Assembly (NCBI GenBank): GCA_001244265.2 | Contig: CDLV01000015.1 | Location: 310,001 to 374,000 of the forward strand | Direction: 5' to 3' | DNA length: 64,000 nt | Source of the DNA: Microbotryum violaceum | Taxonomy: Eukaryota | Shown: in pieces, positions 2,146 to 30,628 of the stretch | Numbering within the stretch: position 1 is the first letter of the stretch | Layout: every line of letters begins with the position of its first letter | The notes under the pieces: model-generated | The model's database searches: none | What the model saw: only the letters and a program-made list of their open reading frames with translations | What the model was told of the DNA's origin: nothing | Position numbers and translations under genes: made by a program

Positions 2146-3893
2146 TCAAAGGTTCTCCTTGAGGAACTTGATCGAGCTCTCGAAAGCGCCTTCCTTGGCC
2201 TTGCGCGACTGTAAAGATGGGCAACTGGGTGAGTGAGTGAGAATCCTTAGCTCGACTTAGCTCGCGTCCACTAGGAAAGCGAAGATTTTTGGCACGAACC
2301 TTCTCGTCCTTGGGGTCACCTCGGATAGCGAAACCGTGGCTCACGCCCTCGTAGTCTGCGATTCCACCAAGCAGACAAGATACTTAGTACAGCCCGCCTT
2401 GGTCGACTGAACCTCAACAGTCTGTAATGGTGACCCACAGTTGCGCTGGTAGTTCTTATCGCCCTTGAAAACCTCGTCGGCCTTCTCCTGGCACTCCTTG
2501 GGCCACTGCGATAAACCACAGGATAAAGATTAGGGTCAGTCAGCTGCAACGACAACGTGGTAGAACTGGAAGTAGCAGCTTGTTTCTGTCTCACCATTTG
2601 GTCGGTCTCGCAAGTGTTCCACAGGAAGGGGATCGACTTGGCCTTGATGGCGGGTAAATCCTCGTCAGGCTTGAGCAACGAAGGGTGGCTGACGATCGCG
2701 ACCTTGAGGTGACCCTGGGAATACGAATCAGAGACCGATATCAGTATCCTATAATGTGGCACAGTTCTTCTGTGCTTCCTAGCAGGACTACCGAACCAGC
2801 TAGAGTAGAGCGGGAAAAAAAACTTTCGGGTCTGGAATAGGGAAAATACTGACATCAAGGACGCAATCGACAACATAGCGACCACCAAAGCAGTAGCCTG
2901 TCGCGGCAAAGTCCTTGACGCCTTGCTGCTTGAGGCCCTCGATGGTCTTGAGGATGTGGGGGTACGTTTCGGCCTTGCCGTGCTTGCTGAGCCACGCCAT
3001 CAAGTCAAAGTCCTTGTTGCGGCTCAAGGCATCCTCGGGGGCGTCGTCGCCGTTCAGGTCTATTATGGTAAGAAACAAGGGTATTAGGATATGGTGGGCT
3101 TGTTCAGTGGCAGGAAGTGTGCTAAATAGTTCATGCATGTTTTCCTTACAGTCAACAGCATAGGTCGCAAAGCCCTCGGCGGCGAAAGCATCGGCGACAA
3201 GCTGAAGAGGAGCATCAAAAGATCGTGTCAGCGATCGAGTGGAGGCTTTGCGCGGCAGAACATATGTCACCAACCTGTCCGTTGGGAAGCGAGTTACCGA
3301 AGATGCTATTTCGGTGGAAAGAGAAGGCAAGGACCGAGGAGAGAAAAGTCAAGACTCCGAGTCGCGCAGAAACTGCCGGTACTCGGATGGACTGACTCGG
3401 TAAAGAACAACAAGGCCTTGGTCTTGTCGTAGTCACCCTTGGGGAGCGCTTGGTCTGCGTTCGAGATAAGGCAGATAGATGCACACCCTGATCAGCAAAG
3501 CCGTCGGAGTCTTCGGCGGACGGAGAGCGAGTGGGGCCGGTCAGCCGGTCGTCACCCGAGTCGATGACGCACGAGCGCCCGGGACAACGCGCAGTCGAAG
3601 CCGGTGAGGAAGGGTAGTCCAAGGTCAAGTCTGCGTGAGGAGACTTACACACACGTGTACCGTTGATGGTGGTGAATTCTCCGGCGGGGGTGCCTTCGTG
3701 CTGTAGAAAGGGCCAGGAATTGCAAGGTTCAGCGACTGGGGTGGGGCATCGACTTACTGAATCGCAGCGCGTGGTCGTGAGGTAGGGCACGCATTCGCTG
3801 CCGTTCGACGGCTACAGCTTGACACAGTCGATGGGGAAGTGGAACGTTGTGACTGACCTTGACACCGGAAATACAGCAAGATCCAAGCGACAT
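2146..3893 (-). CDS. Dienelactone hydrolase family protein (AIM2-like), copy 1, multi-intron
   Basis: MSLGSCCISGVK / HEGTPAGE..., nucleophile motif GYCFGG, HPS, HGFAIRGD; ends ...SIKFLKENL*. Confidence 0.9.
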
Positions 3894-4019
3894 GATGGAT
3901 GAGATTCGGTGATGGATGAGATTCGGTGTTAGCAGGTGAGGTGGTGGAGGAGCGATGGGGTGGTAAGGATTGATCGGTTGGAGCAAGCCGTACACCGAGC
4001 TCTAGCAATCGAGCGTCGC

Positions 4020-4293
4020 TTTTTTTATTTTCATTTGATAGACTTCATTAACAGCATAATTATATTAATACTAGAAATCTTCGGAAAAGTCGGAGGGAAT
4101 GCTGTTACGCACACTGACAGAAGCCAGTAGTGTAGGACTCATTGACCCTAAACCAGGATCAACCATACCCACTAAAACCCCCTTTGGTGTCTTACAGAGA
4201 CACTAGGCGACCCTTGGACTCCTGGATAGAGGCTCGAAGCCCCTCGAACTCCGTTTCGGTGATCGGTTCCAAAAGATCCGACGAGAATCGACG
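4020..4293 (-). repeat. Left inverted arm: 5'-truncated LINE 3' end (last ~100 nt of ORF2, 3' UTR, A-rich tail)
   Basis: Block-by-block comparison with 9318-9591 gives 5 substitutions and 1 indel over ~273 nt. Confidence 0.97.
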
Positions 4294-4440
4294 CCAGGGC
4301 GAGCACCGGAATCATTTCATTATCCATCAACGACCTCCGTTATTAGCTTCGTTCTTGAGCCTATTTCGAGCGCCCGCGCCTAGAACCGGACTTAATTTTG
4401 ACGCCGATTTGGCCGACTTGAAAAAGGAAACTCCTATTGG

Positions 4441-5869
4441 ATGGACAACAACAACAACACCAACAACGCCAGCCATGCTGCTATACCACCTCTTCGCCCT
4501 GACCCTCCCGATCCTCCCGGCCAAGCCCCCGCCACCACCACCAAATCATACTCCGCCGCGGTCGGCGCCCGCTCCGCTGCGAAGCACGGAAACGCCACCG
4601 CCAACGCCTCGACTGCCGTCGCCGCCCATCCACTGATGCACAACATCGAGAATTGTGTCATCATCAACACCCCACCCTCAACCTCGGTCGAGCAAGTCCT
4701 CCTCGCGCTTGACAAATACTACCCTGGCCTTACCGGCGCAATGCCATGCGTCATCAAGAGTCAGCGCGGCCTCCGCTTTCCCAAGGCCGCCGATCTCGAC
4801 ACCCTGGTGGCCAACGGCCTCATTGTTGGCAAGACTCTGTGCAAAGTCGAGAAGCTGTACAGCTCTACTAGAGGAGGTGTTGTACAATGCACCCTTAAGG
4901 GCTTTTTCTCCGACCCGAGGGCCTCTGCCTATTCGATGAGCAGATCGCTGCCTATGGCACGGTCCTCCGTCGTCGCATCCAATACATTGGAAAGACGAAA
5001 CACATCTCTGGGGTGTACGACTTTATCCTTGCCCTTAAGGATGTAGATGTTTTGCCCCCTGCCTCACTTTCTATTGCTCGTGACGGTGTCACTGAGCGAA
5101 TCCCACTGAGGATCACCGGTGGCATGCGCCACTGCGTCTTCTGCCGTTCCGCGGCTCACGTCCGTAAGGTTTGCCCCGTCGCCCCGGCGTGCAAGTCCTG
5201 CGCGAGCACCTCGCACGCCACCCAGCACTGCCCGGCCCGTCATGCGTCGAGCCCCAGGGACCCCCACGTCACATGCCCCGCAAGCCTCCACCGCCCCACC
5301 GCCGCCCCCACCGCCGTGTCCAAGTCGATCTCCCCGGCCTCCGCCCACGACCGCATGACCAAAAAACGTCGAGTGGAACAGGATCTGGCAGCCCAGACTG
5401 AAGATCTGCCCAACAGAGCTCAGCCCGATTCTCTGTCAAAGAATGCCCGCCCCGAATTCTCCTTCAATTTCCCTTGCAAAATGCCACTCCTCCTGCCCCC
5501 CAGCCTGCCTCCAATCAGGGAATTGCCTACTCCCTCGTTGAAAAATCCTCCGAGTCCCCCAGCTCAGAGACCACTTCTCCATCCCCAAGCCCTCCTCCGG
5601 CCACGCCAAAGTCGATCATAACTCGATCCAAGTCGATTGCCGTCCTTTCCAAGCCAGCCACTCGTGAAGCCCCTCCCACTGCGCCTGCCCTCGAAGCCTC
5701 CGAGCCGAGCCCCGAGCCGTCTTCGCCCACGCCGTTGCCCTCAGCCGCGCCCAAAGCCCGACCCGATGACGCCGACACCGACGACGAGGCCGACGAAGAA
5801 GCCGAAGACCAAGAAGCACCTCCTAAGGACGTGGAAGACGCTATGGACCAAGATGATGAGCACAACTAA
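4441..5869 (+). CDS. LINE ORF1 (gag-like nucleic-acid-binding protein), 2 apparent frameshifts
   Basis: CVFCRSAAHVRKVC and CKSCASTSHATQHC (CX2CX4HX4C x2); Pro/Ser-rich and acidic C-terminus; no introns. Confidence 0.85.
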
Positions 5870-8800
5870 AATCCCAAACGTGTCTTCTGCTGCTGCCAAC
5901 GTGCAGTCAATCAATGAAGACCGTAAGCGTGCCTCTCTTTTCTCCAATCTCCGCTCCCATAACGCCGACGTCTTTCTCCTGAGCGAAACTGGCCGACCTT
6001 CCCCGAAAGGGTGGCCCAGTGGACTCAGGAGTGCCAAGGCTTAAAGCTCTCCGCTCTTTTCACTCCTTTCAACAACACTGCCATACTTTGGAAGAGCGAC
6101 TCCGTGGTCATTACTTTTGATCCCGAGTCGCCTCCAAACACTCTTCGTGCCTCTTTCTCTTTCCCGGACCGAGTCACCGACGCCACCTTTTGTGTGGGTG
6201 ATTCAAAAGTCCGGGTTGTATCAATATACGCGCCTTCCTCCGACAAGCCAGACAAAAAACGCTTCCTCTCACGCCTCAGCACCGCCCTCCGACAAGTTGT
6301 ACGTGACGAACCCTCGCCGCCTGCGCTCCTAGTCGGGGGGGACTGGAATTGTGTTGAGTCCCAGCCCCTCGATTCGGAGAACCAAAACGGAACGAATTAT
6401 GGGGGTCAGGAGATGCGCGACCTTGCCACGGCCAACAATCTTTTCGACGCCTATCGGCTCCATCATCCCAAAGGACGAGCCACGACGAATCGCTCAGCGC
6501 CCGGCACGTGCCGTCGCCTTGACCGCATCTATGTCTCGCCTGATTGGGTCGACCTCTTCCATGATCACAAAATTTGGGCTCCTGTCCTCAAATCGACGCA
6601 CTCAATGGTCGTGGCACGGTTCCAAGTGCCGGGCGCAATCGACATCGGTCCGGGCAAATTCAAGCTGGGTTTGCACGTGATCGAGGGCGACGCGACCTGC
6701 GAGTACCTCACCTCCACTGTCCGCACCCTTTACAACAAAGCCCTCCTCCAGACGCCCAACGATCCACCAGCAGCTTGGATGTCCACCAAACACCGCCTGC
6801 TGCCCGAGCTGCAGGCTCTGGCCCGGACTTTCGCTCGGTTCCGTCGTGGCGGGTCGGAGCAAGAGAGGGCTGACCACTCGCGCTACGGCGCGGCCCTGCG
6901 GTCCCGCCTCGACCCATCTCTGGCGGGTCCCTCTTCCATCTTCATCCGCCTGCGCAAAGTGCGAGCATCCGACCTGATCCCTTCGCTCACGGTCAACGAT
7001 GTTGTTCATTCCGACCCTGATTCGAAGCTTGGAGCGGCCGGCGACTACTTCGAGCGGGTCTAGAGGACCGCCCCATCGATGACGCGGTCCTGAAGGCGGT
7101 CATCGACGGCCTCGCTTCAACTCGCCTCTCCCCCGCGGACTCACTCAAGCTCGAGGAAGCGTACCCGTTGGAGATGACAAAGGCTCAAGCGGCGTGTAAT
7201 TCGAACTCTTCGCCAGGGCCTGACGGCCTCCCGGTTGAGTTTTATCGCGCTACGTGGCCGGCCACTGGCCCGATTCTTCGAGACGTCATCAACTCGATCC
7301 CCACCGAGGCCCGTCAGCCTGGACCTCTTCCCCGCAACACCGCCCACATCCATCTCATCCACAAACGCGGCGAGAGGGATCAGCTTTCGAACAAACGCCC
7401 CATATCGCTCATCAATGCGGACGAGCGCATCATCTCGCAAGCCCACAACCAGCGCCTCGCTCCCTTGCTCGAGTCCCTGATCGGCCCAACCCAACGTGGC
7501 TTTGTTCCGAACCGTTGGATCGGCACGAACATCGCTGAAGTCCAATGTCTCATGGACCCTGGACTTCCGGGCTCAACACCCGTGTCTGGCATGCTAGCGG
7601 TGATGGACTTTGAAAAGGCTTACGATCGTCTTTCCCACCCGTACCTTGATGCAGCCCTCTGCGCCGTTGGCCTCGGCCCCAAAGCCCGCCAATGGTACCG
7701 AGCGACCTACACCAACCAATCTGCCTCGATCTTCCTCAACGGTTGGCTCTCTGCCACTTTCGACATCCTGTCGGGCGTTCGGCAAGGTGATCCTTTGGCT
7801 CCGTCTCTCTTCGTCCTGGCGATCGAAGGTTTTGCCTGTCAGATTCGATTGAGAGTCAAGGGCATCGATATTGCGGGCCTCCAAAACGTTCGCGAACTCC
7901 TTTTTGCCGACGACGCTTGCTGCGCACTCCACAACCTCTCGGACTTCGACCACCTCAATCGGGCGATCGAGCTTTACGAACGGGCAAGTGCCAGCAAGCT
8001 CAGCAACGTCAAATCTTTCCTCTACCCCCTTGGAGCTTTTCGGGATCGGTCGATCGCCCCAGATCTCGGGACCTGGCGTCTCAGCAATTCGCAGTTTCGC
8101 TACCTTGGTATTCAGGTCGGGGTGGAGATCGCCGAGGATGCGGGCTGGGAAGATGTCAAGGCCTTGACCATCGCTCGGATACGCTCGATTCCGATGTACG
8201 ATCTCCCATTTGCAGCCAAGTGTTCGATCATCAACATCTACTGCTACACAAAGATCTTGTACTACAGCCGATTCCTTCCCGCCCCAAGAGCGTTGTCAAG
8301 GAGATCGAGGAGGCCGCCATGCTCGCCATTCACGGTCGAGCTTCGGATGGTACTCAGCGACGTCCGAAGGTCTCCCGGTCACGCCTCTGCACCCCTCTTG
8401 ATCACGGCGGCTTCGGTTTGATTGATCTGCCTCGGCGTCTAGCAATCGATCACGCGAAGTGGGTCTTCCAGCTCCGGGCCCCGGACGGCTGCTTCACACG
8501 CCACCTCTTCGACATCCGCATCCGCCTCCAGGCACCAAACGAACCAACCCCTTTCACCTTGTCCAGACCGGCCCCCAACCAGCATCGTTGCCCTTGGATT
8601 TGGATCTGGTGGGCTTACTTTTGCCATCCTCCCCAAAGTGGGACCATGCGGTGAGAAAAACAACAAAACTTCTTCCTGCTCGTTGGGTCCGATACTTCGA
8701 AGCCTGGGCGTTGGTGACCACGCTCAATCCCCGGAACTCTCCAAGAGCCAGAACCTCGAGCAATGGGCGACGCACGTACTCTACTTCCCAGCGGGCCACG

Positions 8801-9419
8801 GAATACAACTCTCGGTAAACCCGACGCTTTTTCGAGGGCCCGATGGCGAGGTGATGACCCCGTCTTCGTTTGTGAACGCGTTCAAACGCCACCAAGTCTT
8901 CATCTTCCCCCTTATCTTCCCCAAGGGACACCAGAAGGTATTCGATCTGCTTGAGCAACGCTGGAACGCTTGGTGGAAGGCTTTGCGCAAGGTTCGCCGG
9001 GTTCACTCGGACGCCGAGGATACCGGCCACCTTCCCTCCCTGGGGTCCCTCCATCCGGGAAGCCAAGTCGCCTCCCCAACCAGCCCACATCCCAACAATC
9101 GATCTACCTCCTGTGTGATGTGCGTCTCGGAAGCACCCGAGTGCCTGGTTCACCTCGCGGTCGGCTGCCCATTTGCCCGGCGCCTCTGGTCTGCTCTGTC
9201 CCGACCTCCCACCCAGTCTTTATGGACTTTGTATGCCCGGTCGTGTCTCGCTCGGAACGTCGACTTGTCGAACTACGAGTCCTCTTCTTTCACTCGATCT
9301 GGAAGCTCTGTCGCCGTCGTCGATTCTCGTCGGATCTTTTGGAACCGATCACCGAAACGGAGTTCGAGGGGCTTCGAGCCTCTATCCAGGAGTCCAAGGG
9401 TCGCCTAGTGTCTCTGTAA
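5853..9419 (+). CDS. LINE ORF2: apurinic-like endonuclease, reverse transcriptase and C-terminal zinc finger, 6 apparent frameshifts
   Basis: APE motifs ANVQS, LSET, SIYAP, GGDWN, RLDRIY, STH; RT motifs SPGPDGLPVEFY, RPISLIN, DFEKAYD, RQGDPLAPSLF, LFADD, YLG; GGFGL; CVMC...H...C. Confidence 0.93.
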
Positions 9420-9591
9420 GACACCAAAGGGGGTTTTAGTGGGTATGGTTGATCCTGGTTCAGGGCCAATGAGTCCTACACTACTGGCTTCTGCCAGTGT
9501 GCGTAACAGCATTCCCTCCGACTTTTCCGAAGATTTCTAGGTATTAATATAATTATGCTGTTAATGAAGTCTATCAAATAATAATAAAAAA
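9318..9591 (+). repeat. Right arm: native 3' end of the LINE
   Basis: Reverse complement of 4020-4293. Confidence 0.97.
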
Positions 9592-9731
9592 TCGGGTTGC
9601 TGACAAATCCACCCGCGATATCTTTATATCTCTAGCGCGTGGGCGGTGAACACCGACTTCGACAATCCGTGAAATCATTCACGCCCTGTCATTCTGGCAC
9701 CCGTCACCTGGACTAGAGAGGATCCGTAGCC

Positions 9732-11130
9732 ATGCCTGATCATTGCGAAGAGTACGTGCATACTCAGTACAACTCCGCCTCTAGGTCGAAGTCCCTTTTG
9801 ATCAGGATTGCCCGCGTGCCCCACTTGCTCCGCCCACTGCAACTGCCACGACGATCTGCGGATCCCCACATGGAGGGCAGCTCTAATTGAACGCTGACGG
9901 GACCCTCCTCCGTTTCCCCTCTTTCAGCTGTTTGAGAGGCGCTCTCCACTCCGGAACCCCTAAAGGGTCCATGACCACGATAGACGGCGTCGACACTTAC
10001 GTCACCTTACCCGCAGCGGGCAAGTATGACGAGACCTTGGCCGTCCTCTTTCTCGGTCAGTTTCACGCCGAAGACGAGGGGACCGTGCGGCGGGAGATTT
10101 CTGATTATATTCACTCGATGTTATGTTGCAGGTGATATCTATGGAATCTATCCTAACGCCCAGGTCAGTGCGCTGACCTCGTGACTTCGCCGACAAACCT
10201 GTCTGCTTCGAGATGTGTGCGCCCGAGCTGATCAAACATTTCCGACTCACCCCACAGCTCCTATGCGATAGCTTCGCGGATAATGGCTATGCCACGTATT
10301 TCCGTAAGCAAAGGCGATGTGGTGCGCGGATAAGTCGAAGACCAAGACCTTTCGCTTTCGCATTGCAGCCGACTACCTCGACAAAGACCCCGTACCAATT
10401 GAGGAGATGAACGCCGGTCGCTTTGACCTCGGAGCTTGGGTAGGGCGACTCCTCTCCATTTCGTAGTGTACATGGGGGGTGCTCAACCCATCGTACTTGA
10501 TCTAAATGAAAGAGCAAGAACCACACCGAGGCACATACCCGCCCCACCCTCGACAAGGTCATTGCTGCGCTCAAGAAGCAAGGCGTCACAAAATTCGCAT
10601 GCACAAGTTACTGCTTCGGGTCCGTCGCTTCCCTTCCGAGATAAAGCATTGCACTAAGCGGCTGGCCCGTGCTTATTGTCATTGTTAACAGTGGTAAATA
10701 CGCCGTCGCATTGGCAGTGGACAACGTCGTCACCTGCGCTGTTGCGGCTCATCCCTCGGGCATCAGAGTTCCCGAGGACCTCGATCTCTTGCGTGAGAAG
10801 AGTAAAGCCCCTCTCTTAATCAATGCGTGTGAGACGGACCGTACCGTGAGTCCCCATCCCCACCCATGGTGGTGAGTCTCATAAACGTTCTTTTGCTGAT
10901 CAGAAGGTCATCCATCTTGCCCACGCCGTCAGTGGCCGCGCGATCAGCAAGACAAAGCCGAGGAGATGATGGGCGGAGGGCGATACGCTCCAGGCTGGAA
11001 GCAGAACTACTATCCCGGCTGCACGCACGGTTTCGCCGTCCGAGGCGACATCACGGATCAGAGGATCAAGTTCGGCAAAGAAAATTCGTTCAAGCAGACC
11101 GTTGCATGGTTCAACAAGTACGCCAAGTGA
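9732..11130 (+). CDS. Dienelactone hydrolase family protein (AIM2-like), copy 2, multi-intron
   Basis: MPDHCEE / CLRGALHSGTPKG..., SYCFG/G, AAHPS, THGFAVRGD, ...WFNKYAK*. Confidence 0.9.
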
Positions 11131-11173
11131 GGGGGGATCATACGCATGGGAAGTGGGAGGTTGCCGTTCTGTT

Positions 11174-13659
11174 TCACCTCTTGTTCTTCTTGGAACTTGT
11201 TTTCCCTGTTGGGGCTGGACCTTCGGCGAGAGCGTGGCCTGTGACTTTGATATGGTCGAAGAGCTTCGTCCGAGATGGGAAGGCCACGGAACAGACGTGG
11301 CACTTCTGCTCTCAATGGGAAAAGGTAATCCACATCAGCCATCTTTCCGACATTGAAAAAATCTGATACCCCGAGTCAGTCACCTCCTCAGTCCCCGTCC
11401 CAGCCTTCTTCGCCGCCTCCTTCAACCTTCTCTTATCCTTCTTACTCATCTCCGCTTCTTCCGCCATGGCCAATTCCAGATCCTCCTTCGCGCCTCTTGA
11501 CTCAGTCGGGGTACTCATCCCCCCTCCCTCGGCAGGTGTACTGGAGCCCGATCCTTTAGCCTCTTTCCCCTTCCCCCTTCCCCTTCGCCCTTCTTGGGTT
11601 TTTCCACCGCTAGGTAGTAATACCTCTTTGACTTGTTTCCCAAGTGCTTCATACTCCTCGAGATCCGATACCGCGTCCATCTGAAACGGTGTCGATATCC
11701 CAGACTGTCCCTTCTTCTTCCCCTTCTTGCTCTTCTTCGCGATCCCTAAAGTATCCAAATCCGGCTCGTCCAAGATAATCTCATCCATTGAGGTGGCTGT
11801 CGCAACTTTCCGTCGTTTTTTCTTCTTTGTCTTCGTAGGTAGGGGAACTTCACCATCTGCTTCCGGATCGTTTGTGCTCGCGAGATTGAAGGCGGCGACA
11901 TCTTCGGCGAGAGAGGATGTCGGCGATGGGGAACGCGAGGTCGATGCGATGGGAGGGGAGTCCCCGTCTTCGCCTTCGTCGTCATCGAGGTCTTCTTCCT
12001 CTCCGACATTCTCTTGTCCAGCTTCTTCTGCCCGCCCTAGTCCCAAGGCTTCATCCTCTTCTTGCATCTCCTTGATAAGTCTGCATCAAGACTCGCCGAA
12101 GAAACTCTGTCAGCGTCTATCGAACGCATACTCCTATCACCAAAATCCCCAAACATACCTCTCCAAATTCTTCTGATGCTTCCTACTCCTCTCATGATTC
12201 TCCCAAGCCCCACCACTCATGAAACCTTTCCCACAAGCCACACACCACTGTTCATCCTCATTCTCCCCCTCCTCACTCCCCTCGTCTCCTTCACTCCTCT
12301 CCTCCCATTGTTTAAACACCTCGTCATTCCCCTTCTGCCAATCTTGAGCTTGGTACTGCGCTGCGAGCTGTCCATTCTCCAAAGCACGTTCCTTCGCTGC
12401 GAGGAGGAGGTCGGCCCGTATTTTGGCGAGTTCGGCGGCGCGTTGTGCTTCGGGGGATAGGGTCGATTGACCGGCTTGCCACCGTGGGTCGCGACGACGG
12501 ACGTAGAGAACCAAGTTCTGCGAAGGTGCGATTGCGACGAACTCAACTTCTTCTCACGTCCACAGGCTAAATAAAAGGTGCGATCCCCGGACTCACCCTT
12601 ACGGTCTCATTGTACTCCCTCCTGCCTCCCTGTCGTAGCCTCTTGTTCTCTTGCTCGATCGCCCTCTTCATCCTCCTCTCCATTCCATCCTCGAGTTTAT
12701 ATTGATCCAACCACCCAAACTCCTTCTCCGTAGCGAAATCCAACCATCCCGTATAGAACTTTTTGACCACACTCTCATAATCCGATTCCTTTGTGCCGAA
12801 GGTCGGATAGGTATATGTAGATCGTAAAGCGTTTTCCTCCGAAGCGATGAGAGCGAATAACGTTCGAAAGGTGGTGTAGAATCCGGTCGCGGATTCGTCA
12901 AAACCGGACCAGGAAGAGGTGGTGAAGAATTTCATGAGTTGGGGGATCGTGACGCCACGGGTGGAGGCGGACCGGGGTTTAGGAACGCTGGTGCCACCTC
13001 GCCGGAGCGAATCGAAATAGAAGGCTTCGGCTGCTAGGTCTGAAAATGAGGTAGGGGAGAGCGCAGGGTCAGTAAAGCAACTTTCAACTCCTTCATCATG
13101 TCCATTCTCTCTTGACCGCTCGAATTTGAAAAGCGCACCTTGCGGTCCCTCCTTCGCCTGTCCATCATTCAAAATTTGCTCGCGATGATCATCGTACCAA
13201 GCCCTCTCTTGTTCATCCGAAAGCACCTCATAAGCAGCTTGAATGATGGCGAATCGTTTCGTGGACCCTTGTATATCGTGGGGGTTCTTGTCGGGGTGTT
13301 CACGGAGGGCGGCTTTGCGGAAACTGAAAGGAGAGGAAGGGGTTAGTGGGGGGTCGAGGCGATCCGATGTCGAGTCAGGGTGAGTTGGGAAGGGACAGCT
13401 TACGCTTTCTTGATCTCGTCCGAGGTCGATTCGGTCGAGATACCTAGGACTGTGGTCGTCGACAATTGATAAAAGAGAAATAGTTTCATGTCAGAAGCCC
13501 GTCAAGGCACACCCGTAAGAAATGGGGGGACCGGACCCGATCCACGTGACCGCGAAGGAGGGATGACTGACCCTCGTAATGATCGAGCGGAGCTCCGGGT
13601 TTCCGCTGGCCTGAGCCTGCCGATCCTAAGCCACTCTCCGTCGATGCGTTGGCCCCCAT
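11174..13659 (-). CDS. JJJ1: JJJ1/DNAJC21-like J-domain protein with C2H2 zinc fingers
   Basis: [54 protein letters not shown]...HERSRKH, terminal [23 protein letters not shown]. Confidence 0.88.
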
Positions 13660-28084: not shown

Positions 28085-28763
28085 CTAGGTCGATGGTTGT
28101 GCCTCTTCCGATCGTTGCAACAGCCCCAAGCCCAAAATCCCACTGTCGGTCGTCGTCTCAATCTCTTTCCGCTTCTGATCCAACTCGACCTTGGTCTTGG
28201 TCAGGTACTGCGACTTGATCTTCATAGCCCTCGAAATCTGTGTAGTTGTGGGGAAGAGAAAGACATGCCAAGAAGGTGGTGATGAGCATGGGTAAAGAGG
28301 AAGCACTTATGGTTCGGAGGTCTCGAACGAACCTCTTTTGTGCGATGCAAGCATTCTAAGTAGTCCTCCTTGGGTTGAATGCATTCGTGCAGCATGTCGG
28401 CTTTGGAATAGCAAGCCGAGAAGTCTAAAGTACACCATGTCACGGTCAGTGATAGTGCTCGGTGCTGGAAGCTTCGCCGTCATTGCGGTGTCTGGCCTCC
28501 CAGCACCCCACCACTCTCTGTCCCTCGTCCGACTTGAATCGCAGACGCACCTTGCCAGAATGCGAAGCATCGAGATCGTCCTCCTGCGTAACCGAATCCT
28601 GACTGTGATCGTGTGAGGAGGTGAGGCGAGACGTAACAGGAGAGAGGCGGTCGAATGGCGGAGCGGCGGCACGACAGTCGACAAGATCAGGGGATACAAG
28701 CGAGTTGAGTCAAGGTCAGTACAGGGGTCGAGAGTAACTCATATGGGAGGTACGTACTGCCAT
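28085..28763 (-). CDS. NDUFS5: Complex I 15-kDa subunit NDUFS5 (twin CX9C)
   Basis: MA / SGFGYAGGRSRCFAFWQ / DFSACYSKADMLHECIQPKEDYLECLHRTKE / ISRA... Confidence 0.88.
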
Positions 28764-29128
28764 GTTGTAAGGGTCGGTGTAGTGGGTGTGGGACGGATGG
28801 GCAAGGTGCGAAGTGAGCCCGCGCGGCCACTCGCAATACCGCAAGTGTCGATTAGTCCCGATGGCAATTGTGCATTAGCAAACAAGCTCCTCAGCGCCAA
28901 GCTGGCCAAGCTCGCACTGCACGGAATCCGGCTTGGTTAGCGGACAACGATCTCGAGCACAGCATCTATTCTCCTACACGACTCGACCGCGCACACTCGC
29001 ACGACAAGGCACACGATCGGTTCAGCTTGACCAGTCGATTCTACGCGTTCACGCTCTTGTAGCATCGCTCTTGGCATCCTCCTATCCCGGCAACTTCCCA
29101 CAAGTTCACGCAACCTTTCCTCACGAGA

Positions 29129-30137
29129 ATGAGGCCCAGCACCGCATGGTCCGCAGTAGCGCTGTGTGCGCTGTGTATAGTCCAACTCGTCGCAGCTCAG
29201 AGCGCCGTCACGACCACTGTTGCAAATGGAGAGTAAGTTAAATCGACGACACACGTCCTCGGCTCGGTTGGTGGCTCTTTCCCCTTTCCGCAGTCTGGAC
29301 GAAACAAGCCCCGACCGCTCTCCGGGGAAGCGGGAGCAGAGTGGGTCGATCCTGGCGCATAGGCTGACCCTCCTCCTTTGATGGGATGCGACCGCGTCTT
29401 CCGCAGTGGCACAGGGACGGTCGAAGTTCTCTACGAAGATTCCGACGGTGATGTTACTTCGACGAGCATCCTGAGCACCATCACCATCACCACCGCCACC
29501 ACCACCATCGCGAACCAAGGCCAGGCCGCGCCGACGACCCTGTGCACAACCGACGGCTGCTCCGCCTTACCCAGTAAATTCGAACAATCGATCGAGCGTG
29601 ATGAAACACACAGTGTATTACTTGACTGAACACTCCTTATGGGTTGGTCCCATCTCCGCAGCCACCTATACCGTTGCGACGACGATCAAGTGAGTTTCTT
29701 TTTGGGCCGTCTAGGGGCTCGCCGAGGCGCAAGCGGAACAAGCGATGCATCGCAAACTTGACCGCATGCAGATATTGACGAAAGTGATCTTTTTTTACGT
29801 GTGCAGTGGCGTCGCTACACAAATTATCGCGACGTGGTATGCCTCCACACCCGAGACCGCAATCCCGACCTGGACTTCGTCGGGTTCGATCGAGGCGCTT
29901 GCTTCTTGTCAGTCCTGTGTTGGTCCAGAACGGTTTCCTGACGATGGGTAGATTGATCGGAACCCAAACCCATCCTTGCGTATCCTAATAGATATCACCA
30001 CTACAATCACCGTCAAGGGCGGTAGCACGAGTTCTGGCTCGTCGCCCTCGTCGAGCCCATGGTCCGTCAGCGAAAAGACGGTCGTGGTTCTCGGTGCGAT
30101 CTTTGCAGGCGTCTTTGGAGCGGCCATCGTCTTGTGA
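29129..30137 (+). CDS. Small secreted Thr/Ser-rich, probably GPI-anchored protein
   Basis: Signal peptide MRPSTAWSAVALCALCIVQLVAAQ; Thr-rich exons; hydrophobic end VVVLGAIFAGVFGAAIVL*. Confidence 0.7.
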
Positions 30138-30628
30138 TCGCGCACCCCTCGACCATGATGACGTTTCCGTATTTCTTTTGTTCCCGTTCCACGACCTAGA
30201 AGGCGTCTTTGCGGGGAGTGGTCACGTGACCCTGCCCTCTCGGACCTTTACGACTTTTTTGTACTAGTTACTTCCAATGGCCCACTGCATCCACCCTCTG
30301 AATAGACACTTTTGGTCCCTTTTTATTCACTATACTATGCTTTTTACTTTATTTGGCTCAGCTGTTCCTCACTGTCTTTGTAACACTGATCTTAATGCGC
30401 ACCTGCACTCGCACCATCTTTCGGTGATTGAATGATGTCAGATCACGGGGGGCGTGCACGGACCCGGCCCACCTTTGGAGTCGGCACGTCTTCGCAAGCG
30501 TCTCACTCACTCCGGCATCGTCGTCTCTTGACGACCAGCAGCACCCGGTACCCCCTCTCTAGCTCTGTCCAAGCGAAAACTCTACCCCAACACCCAATCC
30601 AGACGCTTTTGAGCCCCCCGACGACAAG

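Follow-up and report, generated by a model that had tools for sequence, protein, structure and literature searches.

L1-like LINEs of the APE type couple an upstream ORF1 to an ORF2 bearing APE, RT and a C-terminal zinc-binding region, carry an A-rich tail and leave many 5′-truncated copies, all of which is matched by the element described here; it differs in showing no target-site duplication at its one empty-allele site and in a nick site that, as read from the flanks, is not T-rich. LINE insertions without target-site duplications are known. Neighbouring or nested LINE insertions offer the nearest likeness: there too, a 5′-truncated tailed fragment and a long copy of one family come together by independent insertion, and nothing essential differs at the present locus, where the long copy is strain-polymorphic with an exact empty site, and the inverted order and 87-bp gap mimic terminal inverted repeats. 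Twin priming, reportedly described by Ostertag and Kazazian in 2001, places an inverted LINE segment beside a sense segment; that segment comes from further upstream in the same RNA, arises in one and the same event and brings no second tail, whereas the inverted part here is set apart by unique DNA, and we reject such a product because the inverted segment copies the 3′ end including its tail and occurs without the long copy in one sequencing run (X4). Two tailed LINE/cDNA pieces at one junction are also seen at L1-induced breaks, where junctions with two poly(A) TPRT insertions form by recombination of two such breaks, with rearrangement (bioRxiv 10.1101/2024.12.14.628481); in contrast, the pieces here were gained at different times in a colinear locus. 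DIRS and some Penelope-like elements use a tyrosine recombinase or a GIY-YIG nuclease, and their inverted termini belong to the element; we discard this affiliation, since a Pfam scan of six ORF pieces recovered only APE and RT domains and the left terminus is a separate insertion.

Within a 64-kb window (the whole stretch of DNA analysed), we found two copies of one multi-copy L1-like LINE family lying in opposite orientation 87 bp apart, which very probably stem from two independent retrotransposition events, an arrangement of a known and ordinary kind (Table 1). A repeat search of the window recovered two adjoining inverted pairs, 4071-4293/9318-9540 (223 nt, 99%) and 4021-4071/9541-9591 (51 nt, 96%), and blastn of the element against the window gave one match between 4021-4293 and the reverse complement of 9318-9591 (274 nt, 97.81%, E 4e-132), with no further copies of the element in the window besides this inverted arm and no other match there for the spacer at 4294-4380. 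In a global alignment, the arms differ by five substitutions (two in the A/T-rich tail and three G/A) and a 1-nt indel, with an extra T at 4020. The match is far beyond chance, and it bears out an earlier note on this DNA, which had described 4020-4293 as the reverse complement of 9318-9591 (with five substitutions and one indel). Translated from the minus strand, 4293-4195 is 100% identical to the C-terminal 33 residues of the sister-species protein model P0122, and the A-rich tail of the left arm shows up on the plus strand as a T-rich run.

Table 1. Features of the LINE locus (window coordinates).
Feature	Position	Strand	Remarks
Left arm	4020..4293	-	Probably older, solo, 5′-truncated copy of the LINE 3′ end; 97.8% to reverse complement of 9318-9591
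Left-arm content	4020..4293	-	Last ~102 nt of ORF2, 3′UTR, A-rich tail
Unique spacer	4294..4380	.	87-nt host DNA; 0 differences in X4 record 10
L1-like LINE insertion	4381..9591	+	Full-length or near-full-length, 5,211 nt; 1-nt ambiguity at the boundary
ORF1	4441..5869	+	ATG at 4441; from translation; frame-shifted near 4913 and 5477
ORF1 zinc knuckles	about 5133-5231	+	Two CX2CX4HX4C, read by eye
ORF2	5853..9419	+	Predicted start codon; APE, RT, C-terminal zinc-binding region
ORF2 APE	about 5900-6700	+	PF03372, E 1.1e-5, 25.7 bits (cut-off 24.5), match on 5963-7063
ORF2 RT	about 7350-8120	+	PF00078, E 6.1e-22
ORF2 C-terminal zinc-binding region		+	zf-RVT PF13966, 0.0046, weak, below cut-off
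Right arm	9318..9591	+	ORF2 end, 3′UTR and A-rich tail of the full-length copy
A-rich tail of long copy	9575-9591	+	

The locus was compared with contigs of four public runs from four studies (X1, X4, X8 and X9); run X22, with next to none of the locus words present, was left out. The empty site is documented by one contig of one run: record 10 of X4 (30,387 nt, depth 58.5, the single-copy level) carries window positions 4264-4380 with 0 differences and then directly 9592, its positions 30271-30387 (4264-4380) and 28359-30270 (9592-11500) being contiguous. At the joint 4380->9592, a stretch of 5,211 nt is skipped with one ambiguous letter (both=1), placing the LINE at 4381-9591 (about 5.2 kb), and the skipped DNA runs exactly to the final base of the A-rich tail, the pattern that a pre-insertion site should show. 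This contig enters the arm by 30 nt only, one below the 31-nt bridging rule, and record 9 of the same run joins the left flank to 4020-4054, the outermost 35 nt of the left arm; together, these contigs give X4 the left arm and the 87 nt of 4294-4380 joined to the right flank without 4381-9591, and the arm thus exists on its own. A stop 30 nt into an arm is usual for k-mer contigs at a repeat boundary. The zero depth in X4 of a 1-nt deletion private to the window copy at 8728 is a second line of evidence that the long copy is absent there: contig depths are 0/3542.3 in X4, 9.8/420.5 in X1 and 22.6/1093.4 in X8, and the contigs with the deletion in the latter two are at about single-copy depth. 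The long copy is present in X1 and X8, whose right-flank contigs (records 8 and 22, respectively) start at 9552, within the tail; none of the listed contig pieces from X1, X8 and X9 covers the filled site's 5′ junction (4380/4381).

The earlier note had called for a search for the empty site in other strains, and X4 provides it, with the arm retained and 4381-9591 missing. Of the origins proposed there, a separate second insertion is supported by the X4 state of arm and 87 nt without the full-length element. The label of a double-tailed LINE has to be given up, since the arm pre-exists alone in X4 and the LINE begins at 4381; likewise, the sequence after the left arm had been read as the element's 5′UTR, and 4294-4380 is instead unique DNA that is kept in X4 without the LINE. 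The 4293/4294 junction is neither the 5′ end of the LINE nor a LINE-LINE junction.

We posit that a 274-nt 5′-truncated copy (3′ end and tail) would first have inserted on the minus strand at 4020-4293, and that a roughly 5.2-kb full-length copy would later have landed at 4381-9591, this time on the plus strand and with no target-site duplication, both presumably by TPRT. The 3′ ends common to both copies would then form the 274-bp inverted repeat around the element, and the closeness of the two insertions would most likely be a coincidence or reflect, at most, a shared permissive intergenic spot. No target-site duplication was visible by eye in the flanks of the composite, for which the earlier note had already remarked as much, nor in those of the arm or the long copy, and at this one site the empty (X4) and filled (window) states share at most one letter, so the long copy has none. 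No common motif was seen in the flanks of the two insertion sites, and the family flank consensus downstream of the tail reaches an agreement of only 0.53-0.55 (over 5-7 contigs), so that no sequence-specific target is evident. In an anther-smut-type fungal genome, this LINE insertion is polymorphic between strains, its empty site is exact and it lacks a target-site duplication; the locus also cautions that two adjacent insertions of one LINE family can pass for a new element architecture, a case that a strain without one of them resolves. Lying 5 kb from each other, the 274-bp inverted arms could give rise to an inversion or, if read through, to hairpin RNA.

Contig depth within the LINE, given as a sum and hence not a copy number, is ~13-260 times that of the flanks, which marks a multi-copy family. 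Summed depth in X1 climbs toward the 3′ end (155-860 inside and 1,848 in the last bin vs 11.5 in the flanks), and loose contig ends mark other truncated copies at 9241 (four of four runs) and, in X9, at the position corresponding to 9366, pointing to short tailed 3′ fragments as a common product of this family. Dozens of close ORF2 models, up to 97% identical, are found in named Microbotryum species; in metagenome scans, a 25-nt word of the 5′UTR and a 27-nt word of the 3′UTR gave 0 matches each. One Microbotryum genome has 392 annotated LINE copies (PMC4469406), which, placed uniformly over ~24 Mb (a genome size taken from contig totals), would yield per genome about 0.6 pairs of LINEs lying within 100 bp of each other, and about 0.15 in head-to-head order. 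Since the window is gene-dense, otherwise free of transposons and not a transposon nest, same-family insertions 87 bp apart are a priori uncommon by this estimate (about 0.15-0.6 per genome).

This rarity and the otherwise transposon-free setting would favour a second insertion drawn to the first, for instance through pairing of LINE RNA with the antisense fragment or through a local hot spot, an explanation that we regard as unlikely, the case being single and picked from a scan of many windows, with no motif common to the flanks of the two sites and the low downstream flank agreement given above. Its more specific form, in which LINE RNA or nascent cDNA pairs with the older antisense 3′ fragment and guides integration within about 100 bp, is a shade less likely again; if true, it would mean that an APE-type LINE homes, assisted by homology, to relics of itself and systematically generates inverted-repeat pairs able to form hairpin RNA. 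Two independent insertions also account for the locus better than a single composite event such as the earlier note had entertained, with two LINE RNPs priming cDNAs at either end of the same break, the cDNAs joined head-to-head, and 4294-4380 taken as filler or 5′UTR. The outward-pointing tails of both arms, the absence of a visible target-site duplication and the human cancer junctions with two polyadenylated TPRT insertions (bioRxiv 10.1101/2024.12.14.628481) would fit such an event, but X4 contradicts it: there, the arm and its 87-nt spacer run straight into the right flank and the long copy is missing, which a composite origin could explain only through a later deletion that began 87 nt into the unit and stopped precisely at the final base of the tail. 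We consider the composite event very improbable. Less probable still is an assembly artefact in which a fold-back or chimera produced the inverted arm: assemblies are prone to errors in repeats, and C or A runs hold 9 of the 12 single-nucleotide differences listed between this copy and the family, but the flank/arm junction is bridged in all four runs, by 32-40 nt (records 1, 9, 15 and 23), the tail/right-flank junction in two of the four (X1 and X8, 40 nt each; the listed X9 pieces stop short of it), and the arm/spacer junction is present in X4 with 0 differences, so that these contigs give no sign of a chimera. A family-wide integration mode in which the 5′ end is regularly capped by the element's own 3′ terminus in antisense, as also proposed earlier, has the structure of this one locus in its favour and deserves hardly any credence, given the arm alone in X4, the 87 nt of unique DNA between arm and LINE, and no recurrent 4293/4294-type junction among the contig joints and loose ends listed.

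In ORF2, the APE domain sits N-terminal to the RT, whose best solved relative is human L1 ORF2p (E 6e-32; R2 proteins 1e-12 or weaker), with further matches to plant and vertebrate L1-like RTs; of the earlier assignment to L1/Tx1-type elements, the L1-like part accordingly holds at the superfamily level. ORF1 has no Pfam match, and its CCHC knuckles set it apart from mammalian L1 ORF1. The ORF1 start methionine is shared by the sister-species models P0122 and P0124 (97% over 159 aa), which require frame changes; a single fused ORF1-ORF2, as hinted by P0124 (1,628 aa), was rejected because that model joins both ORFs by a predicted intron. Relative to the family, the window copy carries at least 10 frameshifts, its ORF2 being broken near 6000, 7062, 8281, 8630, 8728 and 9199. 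Some of the roughly 19 indels within 4381-9591 may stem from homopolymer assembly error, but this was dismissed for the frameshift at 8728, where X1 and X8 contigs at single-copy depth show the same state as the window, so that at least this one is real. RIP-type mutation was likewise set aside as the source of divergence, a TCG/CGA context occurring at only 3 of the 17 listed sites with window T/A vs family C/G. Such damage in the supposedly younger copy is odd for a recent insertion unless the template was a dead source, and a polymorphic copy full of frameshifts raises the question of whether dead copies of this LINE family are mobilised in trans.

The long inverted repeat that the earlier note placed around an L1-type LINE is present as described. 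A repeat search of the window recovered the inverted pairs 4071-4293/9318-9540 (223 nt, 99%) and 4021-4071/9541-9591 (51 nt, 96%), and a blastn search with 4020-9591 returned a single inverted match (274 nt, 97.81%, E 4e-132) and no further copies in the 64-kb window; in global alignment, the two arms differ by 5 substitutions and a 1-nt indel, and the left tail has an additional T. The classification of the element held at superfamily level: because it displays endonuclease and RVT_1 domains, and human L1 ORF2p chains come out as the best solved relatives of its RT piece (E 6e-32), ahead of R2 proteins (1e-12 or weaker), it is an APE-type, L1-like LINE. Its nearest named proteins are Microbotryum gene models, with identities of up to 97% to those of M. 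silenes-dioicae. Metagenome scans with one short word each of the 5′UTR and the 3′UTR returned 0 hits.

Most of the stretch is contained in 21 public sequencing runs from seven studies, and Logan contigs of the runs X1, X4, X8 and X9 (four studies, four organism labels) were aligned to 2500-11500 at 85% likeness. The flanks are at single-copy depth (~11.5 in X1, 60 in X4, 25 in X8 and 4-7 in X9). Within the element, contig depths add up to tens to hundreds of times the flank value and increase toward the 3′ end, although the tool warns against reading such sums as copy numbers. A profile of this kind is typical of a multi-copy LINE family in which many copies are 5′-truncated, and other truncated members are seen as loose contig ends, at 9241 in all four runs and, in X9, at the position equivalent to 9366. 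A contig joint at 7195-7656, skipping 460 nt with one T between, is found in all four runs at high summed depth (99, 835, 322 and 70) and may represent an amplified subfamily with a deletion toward the N-terminus of the RT region, its shorter side of 26 nt being weakly anchored. In X1, X4 and X8, the loose ends "before 9311" and "behind 9316" have a short motif in common, which suggests another family copy with a small insertion or another element there, possibly with a 6-nt duplication.

In X4, a 30,387-nt contig (record 10, depth 58.5) joins 9592-11500 to 4380 back to 4264 with no letter between (joint 4380->9592: "skips 5211", side 117, both 1), and a second contig (record 9) extends out of the left flank as far as 4054, 35 nt into the arm. 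Both end ~30-35 nt within the arm, the point at which a contig built from k-mers has to break off when it runs into a repeat. The order in X4 is therefore left flank, arm (4020-4293), the 87 nt of 4294-4380 and right flank from 9592 onward, without 4381-9591. The skipped DNA stops precisely where the A-rich tail does, which marks this junction as a pre-insertion site and not a random deletion, and X4 thus supplies an empty site for the long copy. The X1 and X8 strains carry that copy, as their right-flank contigs start at 9552, within the tail. A 1-nt deletion at 8728 that is private to the window copy provides a second line of evidence alongside the empty site: contigs of approximately single-copy depth bear it in X1 (9.8 of 420.5) and X8 (22.6 of 1093.4), and none do in X4 (0 of 3542.3).

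Because the arm occurs without the long copy, and unique DNA lies between them, what had been labeled a double-tailed LINE is two insertions of one LINE family. The architecture is that of an ordinary neighbouring pair, one member being polymorphic between strains, and of the origins previously proposed it is the separate second insertion that the X4 arrangement supports. We posit that the solo 5′-truncated copy would be the older, minus-strand insertion, and that the 5,211-nt LINE would have inserted on the plus strand with the arm already in place. The 87 nt formerly taken for its 5′UTR are a unique spacer, as the X4 joint has the LINE begin at 4381. At this one site, comparison of empty and filled states reveals neither target-site duplication nor deletion (≤1 ambiguous letter), in keeping with the earlier reading that no duplication is visible; the nick site (4380/4381, 9591/9592), read from the flanks, is GC-rich, not T-rich.

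Chance is an adequate explanation of the proximity, as the locus was chosen from a very large scan: from 392 LINE copies, the number that a published annotation (PMC4469406, Table 2) gives for one Microbotryum genome, and assuming uniform placement, comparable species and a genome of ~24 Mb (from contig totals), our own arithmetic gives ~0.6 LINE pairs within 100 bp per genome, and ~0.15 head-to-head. An alternative is that the second insertion was drawn to the site by the first fragment, which we regard as very improbable. The joining of two RNPs head-to-head would find precedent in human cancer genomes, where a preprint (bioRxiv 10.1101/2024.12.14.628481) attributes junctions with two polyadenylated TPRT insertions to two L1-induced breaks that recombined with each other; here, it is excluded by X4, which has the arm without the long copy and unique DNA between. 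The same solitary arm and unique spacer refute a family-wide antisense 5′ cap. Twin priming does not fit: there, a single event inverts a more upstream segment copied from the same RNA and no second tail arises, whereas this locus has one. DIRS- or Penelope-type termini are dismissed, as the element encodes APE and RT enzymes and its apparent left terminus does not belong to it.

Features of the LINE locus and of the remaining window (window coordinates)
Feature	Position	Strand	Remarks
Solo 5′-truncated copy, putatively older	4020-4293	minus	last ~102 nt of ORF2, 3′UTR and tail
Unique spacer	4294-4380		87 nt; not 5′UTR
LINE	4381-9591	plus	5,211 nt
LINE 5′UTR	upstream of ORF1 ATG 4441	plus	~60 nt
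ORF1	ATG 4441 to stop 5869	plus	start Met as in sister-species gene models P0122 and P0124
ORF2	~5853 (putative start) to stop 9419	plus	
Endonuclease/exonuclease/phosphatase domain	5963-7063		between arms; profile match
RVT_1 domain	7021-8421		between arms; profile match
zf-RVT	8443-9408		between arms; match below threshold
Gene products: zuotin-like DnaJ, Tam41, L-lysine/ornithine N-monooxygenase (siderophore-type), Rad4/XPC, ribosomal protein S6e (RPS6e), GH47/PA-domain protein, NuBaID, HSBP1, among others	11312-62586		

Relative to the window copy, family contigs have one extra base at 4913, 5251, 5260, 5293, 5477, 6000, 7062, 8281, 8630, 8728 and 9199 and an extra GGA at 7169; seven further indels add to these 12 sites. 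Each single-base difference shifts the reading frame into the next open piece in the ORF translations, and tblastn with intact-looking sister-species models places frame changes at the same places (~4917, 5480, 6008, 7060, 8301, 8633, 8731 and 9210). As nine of the 12 sites are within C or A runs, some could be homopolymer assembly errors and others real decay; for the deletion at 8728, both X1 and X8 give read support. Against six long, high-depth X1 pieces, the long copy has 24 substitutions over 2,154 nt (~1.1%). Differences from the family across 4759-9466 are mostly transitions, and of 17 listed sites at which the window carries T or A, only three fall in TCG/CGA, the context reported for RIP-like mutation in Microbotryum. 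It is mildly odd that a strain-polymorphic copy is so heavily frameshifted; this could be explained by trans mobilisation of a dead source copy, by lineage sorting of an older insertion or by assembly errors that persist.

ORF1 features two CX2CX4HX4C zinc-knuckle motifs (~5133-5231, read by eye from the translation), and the piece bearing them matches no Pfam family at E<=0.01. The sister-species gene models include artefacts: the single fused ORF1-ORF2 protein that P0124 seemed to offer is rejected, as this model connects the ORFs via a predicted intron. Another, P0134 (2,087 aa), in which the LINE's RT occurs together with integrase and copia-type domains, is probably a nested-transposon artefact. 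No other transposon domains were found among 16 ORFs scanned in the rest of the window, which is gene-dense, ordinary fungal DNA.
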